Part shown: piece after piece, positions 7,688 to 26,648 of the stretch
Position numbering within the stretch: position 1 is the stretch's first letter
Layout: each line of letters starts with the position of its first letter
Assembly (NCBI RefSeq): GCF_016127575.1
Contig: NZ_CP066018.1
Span: 2,850,001 to 2,882,000 of the forward strand
DNA: 32,000 bases
From: Cupriavidus necator
GTDB taxonomy: Bacteria > Pseudomonadota > Gammaproteobacteria > Burkholderiales > Burkholderiaceae
Direction of reading: 5' to 3'
Notes under the pieces: model-generated
What the model was told of the DNA's origin: nothing
What the model saw: the letters and a program-made list of their open reading frames with translations, nothing else
The model's database searches: none
Program-made: the position numbers and the translations under genes

Positions 7688-7733
7688 TCTGGTGGTGGTA
7701 CAGGGATTGAACCTGTGACCCCTGCCGTGTGAA
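7688..7733 (-). repeat. island-distal att repeat: displaced 3' half of tRNA-Val (anticodon loop through CCA plus 2 nt)
   Basis: tctggtggtggtacagggattgaacctgtgacccctgccgtgtgaa matches 26572-26618 except for one missing g (tggtggg vs tggtgg). Confidence 0.9.
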
Positions 7734-8234: not shown

Positions 8235-9104
8235 TCACCCGGCTCTTGCCGTGACCTGGGTGTCTTGTTCATTACGACACAGTGTCGCCGCAAACACGCT
8301 AGAAACACTGGAAAGGGCGGCGGCCAGAACGTCGAGAAACGCAATATACTTTCGAACGACTTCGGTATCCGGCCATACGATCGAGGTGGACGGATGTGCG
8401 ATCGAGTTTCTATCGTCCATTAGCGCTGTCAATTTTTGCTTCGCAAGCGATTCAGCATTTGTGGGATCTTGCGTCATAAAGTAGGCTTGAATCGAGGCCT
8501 GTTGTCCTAATTTCTTCCATATTTCCTTCGCGCCGATACGGTCATAAAGATCCGTAAGGGTGTCAGGCTTCATATTTGTTTCAGTAATCGAAAGGCACTG
8601 ATAATTGATATTATCGATCGTGGCTTCGGCTGATAGATTGGCTGCCAAGTTTTTGGTGAAAGAAGCAACTGCGCCGTCGCCATGTTGATACTTCCTTGGT
8701 GATTGCATCACGATCGCAGTGAACACGACTAAGCTATCCTGCATCTTCTTTGGCAACGCCCTAAATGATGATGCCCGCTGAGCCAATCGTTGGCAAAGGT
8801 CCTCAAACGAAGTACGTGTGTACTCTTCGAATCGTCCTGCAATGTAGAGGATCATCGTACCGCTAACGACAGGCAACCCCTGGTGTGAATTCCGGGTGCA
8901 TTGATGTAAGGTATTTGCTTGGCGGAGATACTTGCGGATTTCTGTGCTTGCACTCGACTTTCGCTCCCTGTCGATCGTTGATGATCGGACATATCTCTCC
9001 GATAACTCAGAGGTCGCCGAGAATTTCTTGATTTCGTCGAGTAAGTCCAATTGCCGGGAAATGGTCACAAGGTCTCGCTGAAACTCGGAAAGGATAAGGT
9101 CCAT
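8235..9104 (-). CDS. HEPN-domain protein (RiboL-PSP / MAE_28990-like), putative RNase effector
   Basis: The Rx4H motif DDRNSIAH is encoded at 8394-8411 near the C-terminus of a helical protein. ATG 9104 has GAGG 6 nt upstream and lies 7 nt after the DUF262 stop. GC is low. Confidence 0.7.
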   Translation of the reverse strand: MDLILSEFQRDLVTISRQLDLLDEIKKFSATSELSERYVRSSTIDRERKSSASTEIRKYLRQANTLHQCTRNSHQGLPVVSGTMILYIAGRFEEYTRTSFEDLCQRLAQRASSFRALPKKMQDSLVVFTAIVMQSPRKYQHGDGAVASFTKNLAANLSAEATIDNINYQCLSITETNMKPDTLTDLYDRIGAKEIWKKLGQQASIQAYFMTQDPTNAESLAKQKLTALMDDRNSIAHPSTSIVWPDTEVVRKYIAFLDVLAAALSSVSSVFAATLCRNEQDTQVTARAG

Positions 9105-9111
9105 GCGCGCC

Positions 9112-10323
9112 TCAGGCCGAAAGGATCGTTCTTGCAAGCGCCACGCGAGCCTTGATTGCTTCTACAGTGTTCCCGCGGCCCACGAGAATATCGTAATCCT
9201 CCTTTGTGCTGAGGGCTTTGGTAAGCCTGTCCTTTACAGTGAGAGGCTCTGCGAACTGCGGTGGCGGTGAGGAATCGGACAGGGTACTAGCTGCGACCAT
9301 AAGGGCGTCGTACAAGGGGCGACTGGGCCGCTTGGTCCCTGGAAGAACGATGAAATCGGGGCCAATCAGTCGGATGAGAGTGTTGATACTTGAGGTGAAT
9401 AGTGCCCCAAGTTTGTCGGCATCATCATTGGAAATATTCCTGTATTTCCTCATTGTCCGATCGAGGATGTGACGTAGCGAACCCTTTGTCTCTCCCGAGA
9501 TAGTCTCACGAATCGCAAAAAATCGTAAAACGAGTTCGCAATCCATCATCGATTGATAGAGAATATTCTTTGTGAGTTCGGGAGCGGGTTCTTTTTCCTC
9601 ATTTTCTGTTCTGCGAGGGATGCCCCATACATTGGCAAAGCTGTCTTCTCGAGACAGGCGCTTGATCATCGCATTGAAGGTGCCTGGAAATGCTGCATTT
9701 CTTAATTCTTGAGGATTTAATTTTACTCCTCCGGTATTAAGTCGTCTGAAGAGCACCATTCTAATATCAAAATCGCCATCGCCACGAGCAGTTTCTGCAA
9801 GTAATACCACGGCACCTATTGTGCGTCGTAGTAGTCCGCGTCTAACTGCCTCGGGGAGATCACGAAACCGCTTCGAGTTGATTTCTGGCCAATATTCCAG
9901 GCCGGTTAGCGCAAAATCATTGTCTAGAAAATCGGTGATTGTCTCTAGTCGCTGCCGGCCATCCATCACTTCGTATTGATTATAGTTTGCCTCGAACAGG
10001 AAGAGTGATGGGATGGGTACATTCAAAAGAATGGATTCAATTAGTAGCGACTTCTTTTTTCGGTCCCAGCGGGCACGCCGTTGATATCCGGGAGCCATGT
10101 TTATGTAGTTTGATTCGCGTAGGGATGCCTGGAGTTGATGCAGGGTGAAATCCATTGTGGAACGGACGACTCTCAGTTGAGTTTCCGCGTATTTCCTTTC
10201 AATGTCGTCCGAGGTACTTGACACTGAAACATCGGTTTGATCGTCCTCGGACTCATACCATTCGTCAACTTGGTCTTCGTTGATGTCGAGGGGCTGGTCC
10301 AATGAAGCTGATATGGCGGTCAT
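9112..10323 (-). CDS. DUF262 (ParB/Srx-like) domain protein
   Basis: Carries the YQRRARW...LIESILLNVPIPSLFLF...EVMDGRQRLETI signature; DGRQR is encoded at 9949-9963. The N-terminus is acidic. No DUF1524/HNH tail was seen. Start ATG 10323 (MTAISASL) was chosen; the 107 upstream codons of the track ORF look non-coding. One sampled line in this gene is 38% GC. Confidence 0.8.
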   Translation of the reverse strand: MTAISASLDQPLDINEDQVDEWYESEDDQTDVSVSSTSDDIERKYAETQLRVVRSTMDFTLHQLQASLRESNYINMAPGYQRRARWDRKKKSLLIESILLNVPIPSLFLFEANYNQYEVMDGRQRLETITDFLDNDFALTGLEYWPEINSKRFRDLPEAVRRGLLRRTIGAVVLLAETARGDGDFDIRMVLFRRLNTGGVKLNPQELRNAAFPGTFNAMIKRLSREDSFANVWGIPRRTENEEKEPAPELTKNILYQSMMDCELVLRFFAIRETISGETKGSLRHILDRTMRKYRNISNDDADKLGALFTSSINTLIRLIGPDFIVLPGTKRPSRPLYDALMVAASTLSDSSPPPQFAEPLTVKDRLTKALSTKEDYDILVGRGNTVEAIKARVALARTILSA

Positions 10324-10766
10324 AAATAACCCTTTGTTTTGGGAGTGGTGCGTGTTCAGCAGTCTATTACAAGAGTGCTGTGCATGGACAAGCCAGATCC
10401 TGCGGGGCGCAAGCAAATATTTGGCTCCGCCGCGATCCGTGATCGGTCCGGGCGAGCCGTATTGGGGCTGTTTAACCGTGGCTAGTAGCGCCGGGGGCTC
10501 CGAGGGGGCGGCCATATCTCGGCTCGATCCGTTGCGGCCAGCTACTACGACAATAGGCGGCCCAGGACCTGCACCGCCGATCTCCAGGTATTGGTCAACA
10601 GGCCATTGAATTGTTGGCTCACCTTGGCCGGCTGCCAACAGCACCGGTGAGCGATGGCCGGTCGCTCGCTGGTGCAGGCGCGGCTGGGGTGGCGCGGCTG
10701 GGGTGGCGTTTGCGAAAAGATGAGCACTGCCGATAGTCAGGCAAACGCCTGCCCATTAGCCAATAC

Positions 10767-11085
10767 TGGCAAACGGTTCGTCAGCTGCGAGTTGAGTTGC
10801 GTGCTCATCTTCGGGTAGGCGTCGAATAGGGCGTGGGAGCGCTGGGCCTTCAATTCGCACTCGGCGCGGATCTGCTTAATCGTCTTGAAGCCCCATCTCA
10901 TAGCCTTGCACGCAGCTGCAGGTCCAGACCATGGTGTTACTCCGCACGGCCCGTTCCTCTGCCTGCCTGCGGGCTTCGAGGGCGGCTTCAGCAGCTTGCC
11001 CAGCCCGCGGGATGTCTGCCACGATCTCGGCCCTTGCCGGGCGGGCTCCGGCCAAGTCGGCGGCCAGCAATGGTGCGCGCCGCAT
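10767..11085 (-). pseudogene. frameshifted paralog of the secreted small protein 24708..25052
   Basis: Hand alignment to 24711-25052 gives about 87% identity over a counted 60-nt stretch. The reading frame is split between two track ORFs, with a 2-nt deletion near 10891-10897. There is also a 21-nt deletion near 10936-10941. Confidence 0.7.
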
Positions 11086-11086
11086 G

Positions 11087-11260
11087 TCAGGCTCCCCCCG
11101 GCGTAGATAACGGCCCGGCGCATGTCCCACAGGCCGTAGAGATAGACTCTGATCTCGCCCGCGGCTGGGCCGTGATCAGCCCTTCCAGCCGCTCCAAGGT
11201 CTCGTAGAAGGGGTTCTCCAGGTCGAGCACGCAGGATAGGTCGCTATCCTGACTCGGATT
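11087..11260 (-). pseudogene. truncated and frameshifted paralog of small protein 25054..25263
   Basis: SQDSDLSCVLDLENPFYETLERLEGLI matches SQDSTLSCVLDLEDPFRMTLERLEGLI. A 1-nt deletion near 11160-11170 shifts the frame. There is no start codon at the equivalent position. Homology ends around 11250-11266. Confidence 0.6.
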
Positions 11261-11280
11261 GAATGAAAAATGGCTTCCGC

Positions 11281-11486
11281 CCAGCCGATTCGAGTCACGC
11301 GCGCACGATTGGTCACTTCGGAAAGGGTGGCATGTCCCAAGGAGGGGCACTGCGGCGGAAAATCGGGGGGAAGAGAGGAGGAATCTACGCCCTGTGTGGC
11401 GGCCCATTGACATGGGCACGCCACACAAGTAGATCAGACGGCCTAGAGGCCAGCCTATGTGACTGGAGCTACTCCTAGTCGGCTGG
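11281..11486 (+). ncRNA. candidate structured ncRNA upstream of the RT (retron msr/msd-like), speculative
   Basis: Terminal complementarity ccagccga (11281-88) / tcggctgg (11479-86), plus gagt (11292-95) / actc (11471-74). These enclose a 15-bp hairpin at 11393-11427 (tgtgtggcggcccat-tgac-atgggc-a-cgccacaca). No convincing ORF is present. Confidence 0.25.
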
Positions 11487-11519
11487 CATTTTGCTAGTAT
11501 ATACGAGGCGATAGGTCGC

Positions 11520-12512
11520 GTGCATCGATGGGTAGCCCAGAAGGTAATTGTGAATAAAAAGCCACTTGAGACGCTTTTCGAGGCTATGTACCACAGCAAG
11601 CGTTCGTTCGACGATTTCGCGCGTGGTCCAGTGGCCCAGAAGTACGTCCGCCACCGCTTCTGCAAGCAGGGCAAGACGAGGGAGGTTCTCAGTCCCGACG
11701 ACAAGCTGCGTGCCTACCACGAGTTCCTGAGGCTCTTCCTGCTCGACTTTCTACCGCAGAATGAGGAAGTGGTTTTCTCGTATCGAAAAGGCGTGAGCGC
11801 CTACGACGCGGTGAGCAGGCATGCGCAAAGCAAGTTTTTCTTCGTTTGCGACATTGCCGATTTCTTCCCCAGCCTCAAACGCCATCGCATCCGACAAACC
11901 ATTCTTTCTGGGAAAGACTCATCTCCCGTCGCCGATTTAGATCAGTGGTTGGAGCGTATCCTTGACCTGGTGAGCGTCGACGATTGCTTGCCCATGGGCT
12001 TTTCCACGTCGCCGACAATAAGCAATGCCGCGCTATTGCCGTTCGACAATGCGGTACAGTGGTATTGCGCCTCGAGGGGGTTGATCTACACGCGTTACTC
12101 CGACGACATGGTGGTATCCGCCAAGGAGTTCGCCTCGCTAGATGGCATCGAGGAAACACTCGGGGCATTCTTCGTCGAATACATGGACGGCGACCTGGCC
12201 CTGCATCCTGGAAAATCCAAGCTGCTTCGAACTGGCAGCAAGATCAGGCTCCTGGGGATGGTACTGTTGCCCAATGGGACCATTTCGGTGGACGCGAGTA
12301 TCAAATCTGAGATCGAGGTACTAATCCACTTCTATATCAAGGACAGGGCGAAATTTGCGGATCGCGCAGATGGAGATGCGCAGAAGGTCGAGGCACGGTT
12401 GGCTGGCCTTCTGAATTACGCGAACACCGTGGACCAATCCTATCTGCAGAAGCTGCGCAAGAAGTTCGGCGCGGCTGTGGTGGATCTATTCCTGCACCGC
12501 TCCTTTGGCTAG
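11520..12512 (+). CDS. reverse transcriptase, retron/Abi-like (about 320-330 aa)
   Basis: RT motifs occur in order: KQGKTREVLSP, SYRKGVSAYDAVSRHA, FVCDIADFFPSL, LPMGFSTSPTISNAAL, YTRYSDDMVV (YSDD at 12096-12107), HPGKSKLL, IRLLGMVLLPNG. The track start is GTG 11520. An alternative is GTG 11550, preceded by AGAAGG. Confidence 0.9.
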   Translation: MHRWVAQKVIVNKKPLETLFEAMYHSKRSFDDFARGPVAQKYVRHRFCKQGKTREVLSPDDKLRAYHEFLRLFLLDFLPQNEEVVFSYRKGVSAYDAVSRHAQSKFFFVCDIADFFPSLKRHRIRQTILSGKDSSPVADLDQWLERILDLVSVDDCLPMGFSTSPTISNAALLPFDNAVQWYCASRGLIYTRYSDDMVVSAKEFASLDGIEETLGAFFVEYMDGDLALHPGKSKLLRTGSKIRLLGMVLLPNGTISVDASIKSEIEVLIHFYIKDRAKFADRADGDAQKVEARLAGLLNYANTVDQSYLQKLRKKFGAAVVDLFLHRSFG

Positions 12513-12515
12513 GGT

Positions 12516-13844
12516 ATGCACTTCTCAGTCGAGCTGGCGGAAATCCGCCCAATAAAAGCGCTCAGCTTCGAGATCGATCTTGCGCGAAACCAACTGCTCT
12601 GCATTGTGGGTAAGAATGGCTCGGGGAAAACTACGCTAGCCAAGGCGATTCTCAACTTCACGTTGGCCGACACCTTTACCCGCACATCATCGGATGGCAT
12701 TTTTCATCATGGCAGCAAGATTTGCTACCGTTTTGGCGCCCAAGAATTCCTGTTCTGGTATGACGACAACCTGCGCATGCTCAACTGTAAGGCGCCTATT
12801 CCAGAAGCGTTGAAGGCGCAGATATCGGTTGAGCTGCCGATGCCCCATGGGCATCGGTTCAATTTCTTCCGAGCGCTTAGCGAGTCCGATCACGAGATCC
12901 GGCGGGCGACCATCTTGGGGGATTACCGAAAACCCGAGGAGCTCATAGAGTTCTTGTCGCGCATCTATGGCGAACGACGATTCGACGATCTGATCGAGGT
13001 ACGATTGCGTACAGGATCGTGCTGCTGCATCACCCTTCCGGGCGGCCGCTATCTGCGTGAGGATTATTTCAGCTCTGGCGAATACTTCCTTATTAATCTT
13101 TATCGCAGGGTACGTAAGGGCCAACGGCTCGTCGTAATCGACGAGATCGACATTTCACTGGACGCCGCAGCCCAGGCTCGCCTCACCGCGGAGCTTCGGA
13201 CACTCTGCACTGAATACCACGTGAATATCGTCTTCACGAGCCATTCTCTAGCAATGATGCAGACGCTGCAGAGCAACGAACTGCTTTATATGGAACGGAA
13301 CGCCGAAGGTGCAACGCTCGTACCGGTATCTTTCAGCTATGTGAAGAGCTTGATGTTCGGGTTCACAGGCCGTGACAGATATATTCTCACCGAGGATGAG
13401 GTGCTCAAGGAGTTTCTGTCGTTTGTAATCCGTCACTACTGCCCACCTACCTTTTATAGCTATTATTTAATTGAAGTTGGTGGGGCGGGTCAGGTCGTCG
13501 ATCTCATGGCGCGTAATGATCGCGATGGATTCCTTGGCCCGACGGAAGACGTTATTTCCATCCTGGACGGCGACCAAAAACACGCCAAGCACGCCCAAGG
13601 GCCGAAGACCTACTGCATGCCGCTAGAGAGTGTCGAGAAGGCCTTCTGGGAAGAACATCAATGCCCAGATTTCCAGCCGCGCATTTCGGCGGAGCAGCAA
13701 GGCCCCAAGGCCCTATACAAGTACGTAACTCGCAACAAGATTTTCTCGCAGGAAGAGATCTTCAAGCTCCTTTGCGATCGCCATCATGAGGTCATTCAGG
13801 AGTTTGCCAGCACCTTGCAAGCCTTTCTTTGCCGGCCCACATGA
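12516..13844 (+). CDS. ABC-type ATPase fused to a TOPRIM-like (OLD / DUF4435-like) domain
   Basis: Walker A GKNGSGKT (12609-12632), signature-like FSSGE, Walker B LVVIDEIDISLD, and H-loop FTSHS. The C-terminal half has YILTEDEV...IEVGGAGQVV...ILDGDQ, resembling the TOPRIM Glu / GG / DxD pattern. ATG lies 3 nt after the RT stop. Confidence 0.8.
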   Translation: MHFSVELAEIRPIKALSFEIDLARNQLLCIVGKNGSGKTTLAKAILNFTLADTFTRTSSDGIFHHGSKICYRFGAQEFLFWYDDNLRMLNCKAPIPEALKAQISVELPMPHGHRFNFFRALSESDHEIRRATILGDYRKPEELIEFLSRIYGERRFDDLIEVRLRTGSCCCITLPGGRYLREDYFSSGEYFLINLYRRVRKGQRLVVIDEIDISLDAAAQARLTAELRTLCTEYHVNIVFTSHSLAMMQTLQSNELLYMERNAEGATLVPVSFSYVKSLMFGFTGRDRYILTEDEVLKEFLSFVIRHYCPPTFYSYYLIEVGGAGQVVDLMARNDRDGFLGPTEDVISILDGDQKHAKHAQGPKTYCMPLESVEKAFWEEHQCPDFQPRISAEQQGPKALYKYVTRNKIFSQEEIFKLLCDRHHEVIQEFASTLQAFLCRPT

Positions 13845-15297: not shown

Positions 15298-16224
15298 ATG
15301 GCTGACGATCGTTTTCAGAACCACAGTGGCGGCGTAGTTCACGTTCACTACGATGTGCGCTACGGCTCCGTACCTGAGGCGTTGCTGGAAGACAGCCGCC
15401 TGGGGCTGGATACTAGGGCTGTTGCTGCCTGGCTGGCCGTGAAGCCTGCCGGCTGGCAGATTCTAGTCGGAGTTCTTCAGTCGCGACTAGAGCTTGGAAA
15501 GGACCGTTGGGGGCGGATCTCTCGCGAGCTGGAGGCGGCAGGATACTTAAGACGTCGAAGAGCTCATGGGCCGAGGGGTCAATGGCTCTGGAACATCGTC
15601 TTCAATCCCGTCCCAATGAGCCGACCTTCGACCATGGGCGGCTTTCCCGGAGATGGTGCTCACGGATCCGGGCAGCGCAACCCCGGTCGATCCGGAACTG
15701 GGACCTCCGACTCCGGCTTACCCGAGGCCGGTTCTGCCGGCAATATAGAAGTACCAGACAAGAAAAAACATCTAAGTAAAAAACAATCAACTACGACCCA
15801 GGCGCCCATCGCTGCCGCGGGCAGTTGCACTGCCTCCCGCTACCGGGAGCTGTTTTGGGCTCGAGCCGTTGAGCCTCACAAAGATGTAGTGGTTGCTTGT
15901 CTTGATCGAAGTGAAATGGACATGCCTACTGCGCAGAAGATTGTCGACGAGCTGGCAGGTTGCCTGGAGGCGGCCGCGTTGGGAAAGCGTGACGGGATCG
16001 CAAGTATCCAGGGTTGGGTTGCAGCGGTCGTCCGTCGCTGCAAGAAGGGTAGCTTCGTCATCGATCTGGGGCGGGTCGTGGCCCGTCGGCGTGATCAAGC
16101 GACGACGGATTCAGTTGTGCATGGATCATCGGTACACCAGTCCCATACCAGCCGGGAGAAGGGGCGAGAAAATCTGCGGACGCTCCTTCAGACACGGGAC
16201 GGCACTGGCAGACTAAATCCGTAG
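15298..16224 (+). CDS. winged-HTH (HTH_36-like) protein, possible replication initiator of the island
   Basis: The N-terminal LLEDSRLGLDTRAVAAWLAVKPAGWQILVGVLQSRLELGKDRWGRISRELEAAGYLRRRR resembles replication-initiator-type wHTH domains. A low-complexity linker follows. The gene lies directly upstream of the repeat-rich gene-free region. Confidence 0.5.
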   Translation: MADDRFQNHSGGVVHVHYDVRYGSVPEALLEDSRLGLDTRAVAAWLAVKPAGWQILVGVLQSRLELGKDRWGRISRELEAAGYLRRRRAHGPRGQWLWNIVFNPVPMSRPSTMGGFPGDGAHGSGQRNPGRSGTGTSDSGLPEAGSAGNIEVPDKKKHLSKKQSTTTQAPIAAAGSCTASRYRELFWARAVEPHKDVVVACLDRSEMDMPTAQKIVDELAGCLEAAALGKRDGIASIQGWVAAVVRRCKKGSFVIDLGRVVARRRDQATTDSVVHGSSVHQSHTSREKGRENLRTLLQTRDGTGRLNP

Positions 16225-16311: not shown

Positions 16312-16560
16312 CATCCACTCAAACCGGTAGCCAGCTGCACCAGTAGACGATTTGCTTATGCAGTCTCTCAAGAGCCAAGTCCATTTGAATCGGCAGTGTC
16401 GGATCGCCCCTTCGGGTCGCCGCTCTCCCTTGCGCCTAGCGGCGCGGGGACCCGTGCGCCTCGATCCGGGCGCGCGGCGCGCGCGAGACGTGGCCAGTCA
16501 TCGCCGGTTTGGCTTGCAGAACAGGGGCAGGTTCTCACCTCGGTTAGCCCTTGCCGTCGC

Positions 16561-16681
16561 GTGGCAGACCGCTGGCTGTTGTGGGCGGGCGGTGGGCTGT
16601 GTGTGGGCAACCCGGAAGGGTTGTTCATCCGCCGCGTCATGGTCGGTCCCTAAGGTGGTGCGGGTGGACCATGTCCACAGC
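16561..16681 (+). repeat. imperfect direct repeat of about 125 bp, copy A
   Basis: Aligns by hand with 16921-17049. The shared core is caaccc-gg(a/t)a-gggttg (hairpin 16608-16623), followed by gt(t/c)catc and a terminal catgtccac(a/g)gc. Confidence 0.7.
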
Positions 16682-16705
16682 TTGGCTGAAGCGGTTCGAA
16701 TGAGG

Positions 16706-16858
16706 GTGCAGGGCAAGCGCACTGAACATGCAGTGTACCTGCCGGTTTCATGCCCTGATATTGCAGTGATAGTGCAGTCAGGGTGCAGTGAGCGTGCACT
16801 GAGGGTGCAGCAAAAGTGCAGCAAGGTGCCGTGAGGGCGCAGTGATAGTGGCGGGAAA
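16706..16858 (+). repeat. array of 14 phased ~11-bp repeats (consensus about GTGCAGTGAGG), iteron- or centromere-like
   Basis: NTGC cores start at 16706, 16717, 16728, 16739, 16750, 16761, 16772, 16783, 16794, 16805, 16816, 16826, 16837 and 16848. Spacing is 11 bp except one 10-bp step. The central units are near-perfect: gtgcagtcagg, gtgcagtgagc, gtgcactgagg, gtgcagcaaaa. Confidence 0.85.
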
Positions 16859-17422: not shown

Positions 17423-18898
17423 ATGGCATCCCCTCACGTATCCTTTAAGCGTGGCAAAGTTGGCAACGGTGCCGCGCACGCCGCCTACGTGAGGGGTGAG
17501 GGAAAGTATGCCGACCGCGACGATGTGCGGGCAGTGGTCGATGGCAACCTGCCTGCCTGGGCGTGCGGCGACGCATATAAGTTCTTCGCGGCGGCGGACG
17601 CCAATGAGCGCAAGAACGGGCGCGCATATCTCGAGGTCGAGGCCGCCATCCCGCGCGAAGCCGCGGATCCGATTGCCTGGGCGCGCGAGTTCACCCAATC
17701 GCTGCTGGGTGACCGCTTTGCCTACCGGCTCGCCGTGCATGACCGGCAGGCCGGCGACGGCGGGCGGAATGTCCACCTGCACCTGATGTTTTCGGACCGC
17801 CCGACCGATGGCGAGCACTTCGACGCGAAGCGTTTTTTCAAACGGAACGGCTCCATGAAGGACCGCAGCTGGAACAAGCGTGACATGGTGCTCGAGGTGC
17901 GGTGGCTATTTGCCAAGCACGTTCGTGAAGTTGTGCCTGGCTGGGAGCCGCCCGCGCCGGCGAAGCCGGAACCGAAGATTGGTCCCGCCTTGCCCAAGGC
18001 CGGCACGCTGTACCACCAGGTCCGCACGGCGCGCCTGGCGGAGGTGGAGCAGATCCGCATTGAGCGTCGGCAGGAGGCCGAGCGCGAGAAGATCCGAGAC
18101 GACCTCGCCGAAGCCACCAAGGATCTGTGCATCCCGTGGGAAGTGGATTTGCCCCAGCTCGAACGTCGGCTCAATGCCCTGCTGACGATGCCGCTGCAGC
18201 TTGGCCAGCAGGCCGAGCTGCAGGAGCTGCGCCGCAAGGCTGAGCTGGAGCGTCGTCGCAGGGAGGCGCGGGCGCGCCAGAAGGCCCGGGAATTGGAAAA
18301 TGCGGCCCAGCACGGCTGCGTCAGGGACCTGCTGAAGATCGCGCTGTACGCCCGCTATTGCGAGCTGGAGGGGGATTCGGCGGGTGGAAAGCGACTACGT
18401 GCTGAAGTCCAGCGTGAGATGCGCAACACCCCGGCGACTCGGAAGCGCGCGGACTACACGCAGGCGCTGGTCGTTCGCCTGGCAGCAGAGGAATTGCTGC
18501 GCGACGGCTTGATCGGCGAGGGCGTGGCTCACGCCCTTGGTGTCAACGCGAAGCTGGCAAAGTCTCTGGGCCCCAACGGGCTGGCCAAGGAAACCAGCGA
18601 GCACCTTATGGCGTCCATCAAGGCAGCGGAAGTCTCCAATGCTGCCGTGGGCAAGCAGGTCAGGGAGGTGAATCTGGCGCTGAACGCAGCTGCCGCGACA
18701 ATCATGCAGACCATGCCTGGCGACTACAGTGCTGCTGCCAATGCGGCCGGAATCGTTGCGAGTGTGGCAACACAGTTCCGATCGTTCTCTGCCGTCCCGG
18801 CATCAAAGGCTGACGGGCAGCCGGTGGTGAAGGCCTCTGCTGCCGACAAAGGCGCTGGAGCGGCCACCGTGCCGAAACTGCGTGCGTCCAAGCCGTGA
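17423..18898 (+). CDS. mobA: MOBQ-family relaxase (MobA/MobL-like) with coiled-coil C-terminal region
   Basis: The N-terminus AAYVRGEGKYADRDD parallels RSF1010 MobA ADYIQREGKYA (catalytic Tyr context). The histidine triad region is LAVHDRQAGDGGRNVHLHLMFSDR. No primase domain is apparent. Confidence 0.9.
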   Translation: MASPHVSFKRGKVGNGAAHAAYVRGEGKYADRDDVRAVVDGNLPAWACGDAYKFFAAADANERKNGRAYLEVEAAIPREAADPIAWAREFTQSLLGDRFAYRLAVHDRQAGDGGRNVHLHLMFSDRPTDGEHFDAKRFFKRNGSMKDRSWNKRDMVLEVRWLFAKHVREVVPGWEPPAPAKPEPKIGPALPKAGTLYHQVRTARLAEVEQIRIERRQEAEREKIRDDLAEATKDLCIPWEVDLPQLERRLNALLTMPLQLGQQAELQELRRKAELERRRREARARQKARELENAAQHGCVRDLLKIALYARYCELEGDSAGGKRLRAEVQREMRNTPATRKRADYTQALVVRLAAEELLRDGLIGEGVAHALGVNAKLAKSLGPNGLAKETSEHLMASIKAAEVSNAAVGKQVREVNLALNAAAATIMQTMPGDYSAAANAAGIVASVATQFRSFSAVPASKADGQPVVKASAADKGAGAATVPKLRASKP

Positions 18899-24707: not shown

Positions 24708-25052
24708 TTATTGGCAACGGTTGGTCAGCTGCGCGTTGAGCTGTGTGCTCATCTGCGGGTAGGCGTTGAATAGGGCCTGCGAGCGTTCGGTTCTGACCCC
24801 GCTCTCGGCTCGTATCTGCCTGACGGTCTTGAAGCTCCAGATATCCTGACCATTTACACAGGTGCACGTCCACACCAGGGTGTTGTCGATGGCCTCCTCG
24901 TTGGCCTTCCACACAGCCCGTTCCTCTACCTGCCGCTGGGCTTCAAGCGCTGCCTCGGCGGCTTGGCCAGCCCGCAGGATATCCGCCACAGTCTGGGCCC
25001 CTGCTGGGCAAGCTCCGGTCAGGGCAGCGGTAAGCAATAGCGCGCGCCGCAT
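24708..25052 (-). CDS. small secreted protein of unknown function (integrase-proximal island module)
   Basis: Signal peptide MRRALLLTAALTGACPAGAQ. This is the intact counterpart of pseudogene 10767-11085. Confidence 0.6.
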   Translation of the reverse strand: MRRALLLTAALTGACPAGAQTVADILRAGQAAEAALEAQRQVEERAVWKANEEAIDNTLVWTCTCVNGQDIWSFKTVRQIRAESGVRTERSQALFNAYPQMSTQLNAQLTNRCQ

Positions 25053-25053
25053 G

Positions 25054-25263
25054 TCAGGCTCCCCCGGCGTAGACGGCGGCCCGGCGCATGTCGTACAGGC
25101 CGAAAAGATATGCGCGGATCTCGCCCTCTGGCTCTGCCGCGATCAGGCCCTCCAGACGCTCCAGCGTCATACGGAACGGATCCTCCAAGTCCAGCACGCA
25201 AGACAAGGTGCTGTCCTGGGACAGGGCTCGCAAAGGGTGAATAGATTGAATGGTGTCAGCCAT
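25054..25263 (-). CDS. small protein of unknown function (integrase-proximal island module)
   Basis: 69-aa ORF. Its stop lies 1 nt before the next start (TGA-C-ATG). This is the intact counterpart of pseudogene 11087-11260. Confidence 0.55.
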   Translation of the reverse strand: MADTIQSIHPLRALSQDSTLSCVLDLEDPFRMTLERLEGLIAAEPEGEIRAYLFGLYDMRRAAVYAGGA

Positions 25264-25373: not shown

Positions 25374-26420
25374 CTAGCCGAGCTTTAATGCGAGATCCTT
25401 GGCTCGGGGGTGGTAGTAACGTCGAAGCATTTGAAGTGTCTTGTGGCCCGTGACCGCCGACAGTTCCAGGACGTTGTCCAAGCGTTCGGCTATTCGCGAC
25501 GTTCCCTCATGCCGGAGGTCGTGAAACCGAAAGTTCTCGATGCCAGCCCGTTCGCAGGCGCGCGTAAAGGCCTTTTTAACGGCGTCAGCAGATGTTGGAA
25601 ACACTCTGTCCGAGGCCGATGTCGCGAGCTCTGCCAGCGGGGCGAGGGTGCTCACAGCCTTGGTTGAAAGGGGGACATCCCTCGACTCACCATTTTTCGA
25701 GTCGTGCAAGCGTACAAAGCGATCTTCAAGGAATACGTCCGACCACCGCAGGCTTAGTAGCTCGCCGCGGCGCATGGCTGTTTCCAATGCGAGGATCGTC
25801 AACGGCAAGATGCTCGGGTTCCGCGAACCGCCTTTGTCATAGTGGCCACGCCCATTGCGTGGGCTGGCAGATAGTTCGGCAAACAGACGGGCCTCTTCTG
25901 CAGCCCCGAGCCTGCGGGTGCGACCGCGGCTTTCGCGGGGCCGCCTGATCGTCGAGACTGGGTTGATAGCCAGGTGTATGTCCCATTCCTTGTTGGCGAC
26001 ATTCAAGACATGGCTGATGAGGGTTAGCTCCCGATTTACTGTTGATCCGGAAACCGGGCGTCGCTCGCCGTCGCCCTTGAGGCGACGGTCTCGGTATGCC
26101 GCCAGGACCTTGCCAGTGAGGGCGGCAATCTTGTAGTGGGCAATAGGGTCAGAACGTAGCTTGCGAATTCGAAGGACTTCTTGCTCACCACCTTTCTTGT
26201 GGGGCGAGATCTCTTCGCTGTACCGGAGGAGAAGGTCTCCAAGAGTGTTCCGCTCAGCCTCCCGGCGGTCGACGAAGGACCCTCGATCCATTTCGACCTC
26301 CACCTGGCGAGCCCAGCTCTCAGCGTCAGCTTTTGTATCGAAGGTGCGCGCTTGGGGTGGGTAACCGCGCTTACGGATCGCGACGCGCCAATAGTCGCCT
26401 CGTTTCCAGATCGATGCCAT
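25374..26420 (-). CDS. int: tyrosine site-specific integrase
   Basis: ETAMRRGELLSL (Arg I), FRFHDLRHEGTS (HxxR), VTGHKT, and LRRYYH (catalytic Tyr). The N-terminal SAM-like arm is MASIWKRGDYWRV. It is the first gene inside the island next to the tRNA. Confidence 0.9.
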   Translation of the reverse strand: MASIWKRGDYWRVAIRKRGYPPQARTFDTKADAESWARQVEVEMDRGSFVDRREAERNTLGDLLLRYSEEISPHKKGGEQEVLRIRKLRSDPIAHYKIAALTGKVLAAYRDRRLKGDGERRPVSGSTVNRELTLISHVLNVANKEWDIHLAINPVSTIRRPRESRGRTRRLGAAEEARLFAELSASPRNGRGHYDKGGSRNPSILPLTILALETAMRRGELLSLRWSDVFLEDRFVRLHDSKNGESRDVPLSTKAVSTLAPLAELATSASDRVFPTSADAVKKAFTRACERAGIENFRFHDLRHEGTSRIAERLDNVLELSAVTGHKTLQMLRRYYHPRAKDLALKLG

Positions 26421-26516
26421 TCCTGCTCCAGACAAGTGATTGGTCGTGTCCGGGCCGATTGTCTGACTGCGCCACTTTTGCGCCAAAAGGGCATTCCGCG
26501 AGGTTTTGCGGCAATG

Positions 26517-26571: not shown

Positions 26572-26618
26572 TCTGGTGGGTGGTACAGGGATTGAACCTG
26601 TGACCCCTGCCGTGTGAA
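26572..26618 (-). repeat. island-proximal att repeat (within the functional tRNA-Val)
   Basis: The 47 nt tctggtgggtggtacagggattgaacctgtgacccctgccgtgtgaa pair with 7688-7733. Confidence 0.9.
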
Positions 26619-26648
26619 GGCAGTGCTCTACCGCTGAGCTAACCACCC
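26574..26648 (-). tRNA. tRNA-Val (anticodon CAC), 75 nt with encoded CCA
   Basis: The minus strand GGGTGGTTAGCTCAGCGGTAGAGCACTGCCTTCACACGGCAGGGGTCACAGGTTCAATCCCTGTACCACCCACCA folds as a cloverleaf by hand. The stems are acceptor GGGTGGT/ACCACCC, D GCTC/GAGC, anticodon CTGCC/GGCAG with loop TTCACAC, and T ACAGG/CCTGT with loop TTCAATC. Confidence 0.95.

Follow-up and report, generated by a model that had tools for sequence, protein, structure and literature searches.

PD-T4-2, listed as "DUF262, HEPN", is a system of Escherichia coli ECOR65 that was selected for resistance to phage T4; in ECOR65 lacking it, T4 plaquing is restored, and HHpred assigned its two proteins to DUF262 (A, 99.7%) and HEPN_RiboL-PSP (B, 97.8%; Vassallo 2022, Table S3, PMC9519451). 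A 2025 paper on the Menshen system still calls it "largely uncharacterized" (PMC12065111), and our literature search returned no mechanistic study of it. The same kind of linkage had been predicted by comparative genomics as "RiboL-PSP-HEPN in operon with ParB" (Anantharaman 2013, Biol Direct 8:15, PMC3710099), in a survey that assigned no function or mechanism to the ParB–HEPN association. The two halves of the architecture are better described separately—in GmrSD, BrxU, and SspE, DUF262 is a nucleoside triphosphatase (NTPase) and sensor that reads modified DNA and activates the attached nuclease (PMC10952713, PMC12065111, bioRxiv 2024.01.29.577857), and HEPN domains with an Rx4-6H motif are the ribonuclease (RNase) effectors of many defence and toxin–antitoxin systems (PMC3710099, bioRxiv 2026.02.22.705581). 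Here, we describe a pair of adjacent genes, A and B, in which a DUF262 protein is followed by a separate HEPN protein; the pair lies in a 32-kb window (the whole stretch of 32,000 nt that was analysed) from chromosome 1 of Cupriavidus necator H16 (AM260479.1, ~2.70 Mb). An earlier, sequence-only reading of this window had proposed the pair as a two-component defence system, pointing correctly to the ParB–HEPN linkage noted in surveys of HEPN domains and knowing of no characterised mechanism, which is still how PD-T4-2 is described. The novelty that it implied does not stand, as the two-gene architecture is that of a named and phage-tested precedent, PD-T4-2. As for its proviso that the pair might map to a system already named and characterised, the architecture is named and T4-tested, but its mechanism is uncharacterised and B is unmatched by the PD-T4-2_B model.

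Gene A (9112..10323, minus strand; ATG at 10323, TGA at 9112-9114) encodes 403 amino acids in the open reading frame (ORF) listing, and gene B (8235..9104, minus strand; ATG at 9102-9104, stop at 8235-8237) encodes 289. Read directly from the sequence, 7 nt (GGCGCGC) separate the stop codon of A from the ATG of B, and a putative ribosome-binding site of B, GAGG (9110..9113, minus strand), overlaps the TGA of A and lies 5 nt 5' of the B start; this spacing and the separate GAGG of B had both been noted before, and A and B are translationally coupled. The A ORF stays open upstream to a GTG, giving 510 amino acids, and the recorded protein form (P0024) has 467. Because A homologues are 389-403 amino acids long and align from residue 1 of the 403-residue form, we consider the ATG at 10323 the better start; the extra N-terminus (window positions 10324-10644) is GC-rich and unconserved among homologues. 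Scans of the locus for promoters and terminators gave results at chance level. The GC content of the pair is 0.491, compared with 0.602 for the remainder of the genomic island on which it lies and 0.669 outside that island, in agreement with the foreign origin that low GC had been taken to indicate. The further claim that GC is lowest in the window over these genes held for 1-kb windows (0.486-0.516 over the pair) and failed at finer scale, where the lowest 60-nt stretch (0.317) is found at 15741 and the minimum inside the pair is 0.333.

Protein A belongs to the ParB superfamily and contains a DUF262/GmrSD_N domain (residues 73-212 by the Pfam envelope, 9688..10107, minus strand; E = 2.9e-27) and matches no other Pfam family at E ≤ 1; hence, it carries a DUF262 signature without the DUF1524/HNH half, as the translation had suggested, and we excluded the GmrSD/SspE class on the lack of DUF1524. 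The three motifs by which DUF262 is defined (PMC12065111) are all present on the minus strand—motif I, QRRARW (residues 81-86, 10066..10083), motif II, DGRQR, within DGRQRLETI (residues 121-125, 9949..9963), and motif III, FRRLN, of the FxxxN form (residues 192-196, 9736..9750), followed by TGG. Across 30 homologues, Q81, R82, R83, R85, and W86 of the first motif, D121, G122, R123, Q124, and R125 of the second, and F192, R194, L195, and N196 of the third are invariant. DGRQR is the predicted nucleotide-binding and hydrolysis centre of A, from the role given to DGxQR in related proteins (PMC12065111, bioRxiv 2024.01.29.577857). The C-terminal half (residues ~203-403, 9115..9717, minus strand) is all-helical, is modelled by AlphaFold2 (AF2) with predicted local distance difference test (pLDDT) values of 80-95, and is covered to residue 400 by the alignment to the PADLOC model of NsnA, the Menshen DUF262 protein; it is probably a DNA-binding domain of the ParBDB type, a concept that we take from PMC12065111. 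This half is the only part of A that is modelled with confidence, pLDDT being below 50 over residues 28-202; Foldseek with the A model gave no meaningful match, and no chain in the PDB matched A in profile or single-sequence searches. Among PADLOC models, NsnA was the best match (1e-60, 204 bits, residues 23-400), followed by PD-T4-2_A (4.6e-34, 116 bits, model positions 46-309 of 363) and, weakly, by "REase_II" (5e-13); the SspE models gave no significant match. More than 2500 homologues of A were recovered, the best 120 all at least 52% identical. Taken together with the motifs, these profiles mark A as a predicted DNA sensor.

Protein B was matched by Pfam PF18735 (HEPN_RiboL-PSP) at E = 2.8e-12 (47.4 bits, the gathering cut-off being 28.4) over residues 55-265 (8310..8942, minus strand), so that the HEPN call made by eye from its C-terminal motif survives profile search; the related MAE_28990 family matched weakly (18 bits). 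That motif, RNSIAH (Rx4H, residues 232-237, 8394..8411, minus strand), has the Rx4-6H form of HEPN domains with a polar residue after the arginine. All 18 homologues aligned retain R232, N233, A236, and H237, and an R[ND]xxxH motif was found in essentially all complete B partners of the metagenome loci described below. The AF2 model of B is all-alpha (pLDDT 88), with nothing better than E = 0.45 in a Foldseek comparison to the PDB, and PDB profile and single-sequence searches gave no useful match. Outside the Pfam envelope, the N-terminal helix (residues 1-30, 9015..9104, minus strand; AF2 helix 3-29, pLDDT > 90) is itself conserved in the alignment, with M1, D11, and L12 retained and I4 and F8 nearly invariant, and is a candidate docking surface for A. 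The PADLOC check that had been suggested thus gave a divided answer: A matches NsnA and PD-T4-2_A, but B matches no family at E ≤ 1, PD-T4-2_B included. NCBIfam holds no model for either protein. When a set of 1.84 billion proteins was searched with a profile built from B, 1087 cluster representatives were recovered at E ≤ 1e-3. On profile and motif, B is a predicted RNase effector with a HEPN domain of the RiboL-PSP family.

The two genes are found together with great regularity. An A homologue lies directly upstream in all 12 loci found through B, and a RiboL-PSP HEPN gene lies directly downstream in all 7 found through A homologues of 53-69% identity. When metagenomes were scanned with the A alignment, at least 552 relatives were returned; the pairing count was limited to the 72 kept loci whose downstream sequence reached 800 nt or more, and B was present in 71 of them (68 with an adjacent match to the B profile and 3 more by tblastn), and the sole true exception carries a truncated A. 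Overall, both genes occur in ~100 of 101 related loci, and the pairwise identities of A and B are correlated (r = 0.94, 24 loci), so the co-occurrence check proposed for this pair came out strongly in its favour. The interval between A and B ranges from -29 to +13 nt in 23 related loci, and clustering of flanking ORFs over the 101 loci revealed no third recurrent gene. The pairing is close to obligate, and the two genes are co-inherited almost without exception.

We think it likely that the two genes, acquired by horizontal transfer, form a self-contained anti-phage module, and that the locus is a divergent new member of the PD-T4-2 type. By analogy with GmrSD, BrxU, and SspE, A would bind DNA and read a feature that distinguishes phage from host, most likely how the DNA is modified; A would then change conformation as nucleotide is bound or hydrolysed at its DGRQR centre, and this switch would release or activate a dimeric B. 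B, standing in for the fused DUF1524/HNH nuclease of type IV enzymes, would cleave RNA (tRNA, rRNA, or mRNA), so that translation would stop and the phage cycle would remain incomplete, the outcome being abortive infection or growth arrest. This sequence of events would account for the invariance of both catalytic motifs, the obligate pairing, the lack of a third component, and the residence of the pair on mobile elements. A defence role is further favoured by the att-bounded island with its retron, by the defence genes and mobile elements near relatives of the pair, and by the experimental precedent of PD-T4-2. The proposal of the sequence-only reading—a DUF262 sensor or NTPase whose partner is a HEPN RNase instead of the usual fused HNH—holds up in both the profile searches and the co-occurrence surveys.

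The same tight coupling of A and B, together with the location of the pair at the margin of an integrative element and its occurrence elsewhere on plasmids, in prophages, and in an integron, would also suit a toxin–antitoxin or addiction module that stabilises the island, in which B is a HEPN RNase toxin restrained by A without dedicated phage sensing; HEPN RNases are indeed the toxins of HEPN-MNT and related toxin–antitoxin systems (PMC3710099; bioRxiv 2026.02.22.705581). However, A is large (403 amino acids) and enzyme-like, with invariant NTPase motifs, and over 24 loci it is the more conserved protein of the two (mean pairwise identity 44%, versus 30% for the faster evolving B), the opposite of what is typical for a small, labile antitoxin. 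Nor is there an MNT partner, Pfam finding no nucleotidyltransferase domain in A, and the homologous architecture PD-T4-2 blocks phage. We therefore regard this explanation as unlikely, with the proviso that a toxin–antitoxin-like arrangement and defence are not mutually exclusive.

A clue to what an anti-phage module of this kind might sense comes from the most divergent subclade of relatives (identity to the window proteins 41-45% for A and 35-41% for B), in which the pair is contiguous with sspB-sspC-sspD in at least six independent loci. The hosts include Aquimarina muelleri, metagenome-assembled genomes (MAGs) of Flavobacteriaceae, a Limnohabitans MAG, and several metagenome contigs (L002 4832-12429; L011 4-6780; L012 477-6783; L010 389-6669; L072, L110, L058, and L057). 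Most of these loci carry all five genes on one strand in the order sspB-sspC-sspD-A-B, A being separated from sspD by ~30 nt, and at the Aquimarina locus PADLOC recognised SspB at 318 bits, SspC at 1273 bits, and SspD at 293 bits. Close to the Ssp-linked pairs we also observed an SspA-like cysteine desulfurase, an Mrr_cat endonuclease (477 amino acids), and an 811-amino-acid protein with a weak GHKL-ATPase match. The pair thus occupies the slot usually taken by sspE, the DUF262-DUF1524 sensor of phosphorothioate (PT) modification, and this placement supports the reading of DUF262 as a sensor. According to the SspFGH paper, 83.9% of 2678 sspBCD clusters lack both sspE and sspFGH, and further partners are to be expected (PMC8092258); our literature search found no description of an sspBCD-A-B arrangement. 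It is conceivable, and we put this forward tentatively, that the pair couples the reading of DNA modification to RNA cleavage, with the Ssp-linked version belonging to a third class of Ssp restriction partner, as yet undescribed—one in which PT sensing licenses an RNase rather than a DNA nickase—and the stand-alone C. necator version using the same switch with a different DNA cue. For the H16 locus, the PT clue bears on the kind of sensing and not on the ligand, because the window has no ssp genes; tblastn with SspB, SspC, and SspD found nothing in its 32 kb.

Several observations weigh against the two-gene defence module or limit how far it can be taken. No ssp, dnd, or methyltransferase genes lie near the pair in the window, and the PT clue may fail to transfer to the H16 locus. 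The HEPN call on B is built on the Pfam profile and the motif, its structural model being without a fold match in the PDB, and AF2 confidence is low for the DUF262 half of A. Homology to PD-T4-2 is at the superfamily level only, A scoring higher on NsnA and B being unmatched. The sensed ligand, the RNA target, and the choice between abortive and direct immunity are all inferred, and the activity of the pair and of its clade is predicted from sequence.

Modification sensing would be put to a different use if the locus were a type IV-like DNA restriction system, in which modified phage DNA is attacked by A itself, as a nuclease of the ParB/Srx DNase type, and B has a regulatory or backup role. 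Members of the ParB/Srx superfamily can be nucleases (PMC10853773), ParB has been termed a DNase domain (PMC3710099), A retains its weak "REase_II" match, and PD-T4-2 acts on T-even phages, whose DNA is modified. On the contrary, characterised DUF262 enzymes use DUF262 as NTPase and sensor and leave cleavage to DUF1524, and B keeps its Rx4H motif unchanged over ~100 loci, as would be expected of a catalytic effector under selection. We find direct restriction by A quite improbable.

Pairs related to the window pair were found in Beta- and Gammaproteobacteria, Chloroflexota, and Bacteroidota; relatives adjoin OLD/AAA_15 ATPases and an EcoEI fragment. More distant A-like proteins, too, are always followed by a HEPN gene of the RiboL-PSP/MAE_28990 kind, on E. 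coli IncF plasmids, in a Shewanella integron, on a Tabrizicola plasmid (with a DNA methyltransferase gene adjacent), in a P2-like coliphage, and in a Ralstonia peduovirus; the plasmid and phage clades are represented by parallel loci L020 2887-4482, L019 2992-4692, L023 140-2015, and L024 2887-4897. These distant pairs vary in size. The IncF plasmid clades of E. coli, Salmonella, and Klebsiella encode 350 and 180 amino acids or 353 and 211 amino acids, the pair of the P2-like coliphage P2_4B2 (381 and 239 amino acids) sits in the variable hotspot after gpA, and the peduovirus pair encodes 413 and 258 amino acids. None of these plasmid and phage B proteins was matched by PADLOC PD-T4-2_B, and on the PD-T4-2_A model the E. 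coli loci L019, L020, and L023 reached no more than 118-143 bits. A homologue search seeded with the plasmid A protein returned only its own clade (more than 6800 matches), and hhalign comparisons of the B family with the 180-amino-acid HEPN protein of E. coli plasmids and with P2_4B2 gp43 were not significant; Pfam places both of these proteins in the RiboL-PSP/MAE_28990 group, and B appears, from these alignments, to be too divergent between clades for pairwise tests.

This distribution bears on whether the pair might instead be a non-defence housekeeping or regulatory module, for instance an RNA-processing enzyme paired with a DNA-binding regulator of the DndB kind. A role in regulating transcription has been ascribed to DndB, which is related to DUF262 (PMC10853773). 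However, the patchy occurrence of the pair across phyla, its GC content below that of both island and host genome, its presence on mobile elements, and the validated defence function of the related PD-T4-2 make such a role very unlikely. A degenerate or minimal Menshen (NsnABC) system after loss of NsnB and NsnC is effectively refuted by gene content: although NsnA is the best PADLOC match of A over its full length, neither an ABC ATPase with DUF3696 (NsnB) nor an inPIN effector (NsnC) follows A here or in the 101 related loci, the nearby ABC-type ATPase (12516-13844) is a retron component on the other strand, and the NsnA model must be generic for the DUF262+ParBDB layout because it scores best on every DUF262+HEPN A protein tested, those of E. 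coli plasmids and of the P2-like phage included.

The element that carries the proposed defence module is an 18.9-kb integrative island, so defined because 40-nt direct repeats and a tyrosine integrase bound it. The proximal attachment (att) repeat (26579..26618) lies inside the 3' part of a tRNA-Val gene (26574..26648, minus strand), next to the integrase (25374..26486, minus strand), and its exact copy, the distal repeat (7694..7733, no strand assigned), marks the island boundary ~500 bp from the end of B. The pair thus begins ~500 bp inside the distal repeat, at the far end of the island, just where it had been placed before the boundaries were mapped. Its nearest neighbour is a complete type I-B retron on the opposite strand, in divergent orientation, with a reverse transcriptase (11520..12512, plus strand; 330 amino acids, type I-B model 3.7e-118) and an ATPase-TOPRIM protein (12516..13844, plus strand; 442 amino acids, ATPase-Toprim_I-B 7.6e-186, 616 bits); the msr/msd noncoding RNA expected upstream of the reverse transcriptase (~11130-11519) was not found by Rfam at gathering thresholds. 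We rejected a functional link between the pair and the retron, which lies on the opposite strand, is complete alone, and is never beside the pair elsewhere.

Other features of the island concern its mobility and history. A MobA/MobL-like gene (17423..18898, plus strand; 491 amino acids) matches MobA/MobL relaxases at 3.6e-08, and judging by this gene the island looks mobilisable; the first 155 residues of the protein also match the PADLOC "DpdH" model (2.4e-26). Upstream of it, at the end of a 160-amino-acid ORF (16352-16834), a degenerate 24-nt unit (TGCnnTGAnnnTGCAGTGATAGTG-like) occurs four times in 16751-16850, with spacings of 11, 33, and 32 nt; these units may represent iterons or an oriT/oriV-type site belonging to the mobile element. 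An imperfect duplication of 512 nt (74% identity) links the interval between gene A and the retron (10764-11251) with the sequence just downstream of the integrase (24709-25218). The proximal copy holds a 69-amino-acid ORF (25054-25263) and a 114-amino-acid protein with a signal-peptide-like N-terminus (24708-25052), and the distal copy is frameshifted. Because of this duplication, with its frameshifted distal copy, the data suggest that the island is composite or consists of two related elements in tandem, and the pair may have arrived on an element of its own, as cargo of an older part that is without an integrase.

These results matter at several levels. This is a very large, widely mobile family with one phage-tested representative and an unsolved mechanism, and the PADLOC 2023 models miss B, so that censuses built on them probably undercount pairs of this kind. 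C. necator H16 is an industrial chassis, and an active RNase-based module for defence or abortive infection on its tRNA-Val island would bear on phage robustness and possibly on DNA uptake. The sspBCD-A-B arrangement of the relatives offers a concrete hypothesis, open to test, on the signal read by the DUF262 sensor. If the coupling of modification reading to RNA cleavage proved true, it would supply a mechanism for the PD-T4-2 family and help to explain the ~84% of sspBCD clusters that are without a known restriction partner (PMC8092258).

Set against known systems, the window pair shares parts with each. The SspE, GmrSD, and BrxU proteins resemble A in their N-terminal DUF262 domain (QRxxxW, DGxQR, FxxxN) and helical middle domain, and they differ in having a fused DUF1524/HNH DNase, whereas the effector in the window is a separate HEPN protein and a predicted RNase. 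Menshen (Millman 2022; Li et al. 2025) is alike both in NsnA, which has the ParB-DUF262 and helical C-terminal layout of A, and in the scheme proposed for it, by which a sensor acts through an RNase effector; it differs in passing through an ABC-ATPase transducer, NsnB, to an inPIN effector, NsnC, whereas in the window a HEPN gene lies directly downstream of the sensor. Menshen itself was rejected for this locus, which has neither NsnB nor NsnC, and Pfam and PADLOC gave no PIN or NsnC match for B. The MAE_28990 operons of Anantharaman 2013 often include a DNA methylase, as the Tabrizicola plasmid locus does here, but the window clade carries none, and a linked methyltransferase operon of that type was rejected on this ground. 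PD-T4-2, which we compared with the window pair through PADLOC models and published domain tables, comes closest: both consist of two co-oriented genes on mobile DNA, a DUF262 gene without DUF1524 followed by a HEPN gene of the RiboL-PSP/MAE_28990 kind. PD-T4-2A is RCO39066.1, its partner is unannotated, and the operon lies at QOYX01000002 338334-339873. In all, it covers 1540 bp, and PD-T4-2B aligns to HEPN up to about residue 163, whereas the B protein of the window is much larger (289 amino acids) and is unmatched by the corresponding PADLOC model. On the PD-T4-2_A model, the A protein of the window (116 bits) is no closer to PD-T4-2 than are the DUF262 proteins of E. coli plasmids and P2-like phage (100-143 bits). 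By these scores, the window pair is placed as a sister clade of PD-T4-2 rather than an orthologue, and PD-T4-2 proper as one clade among several.

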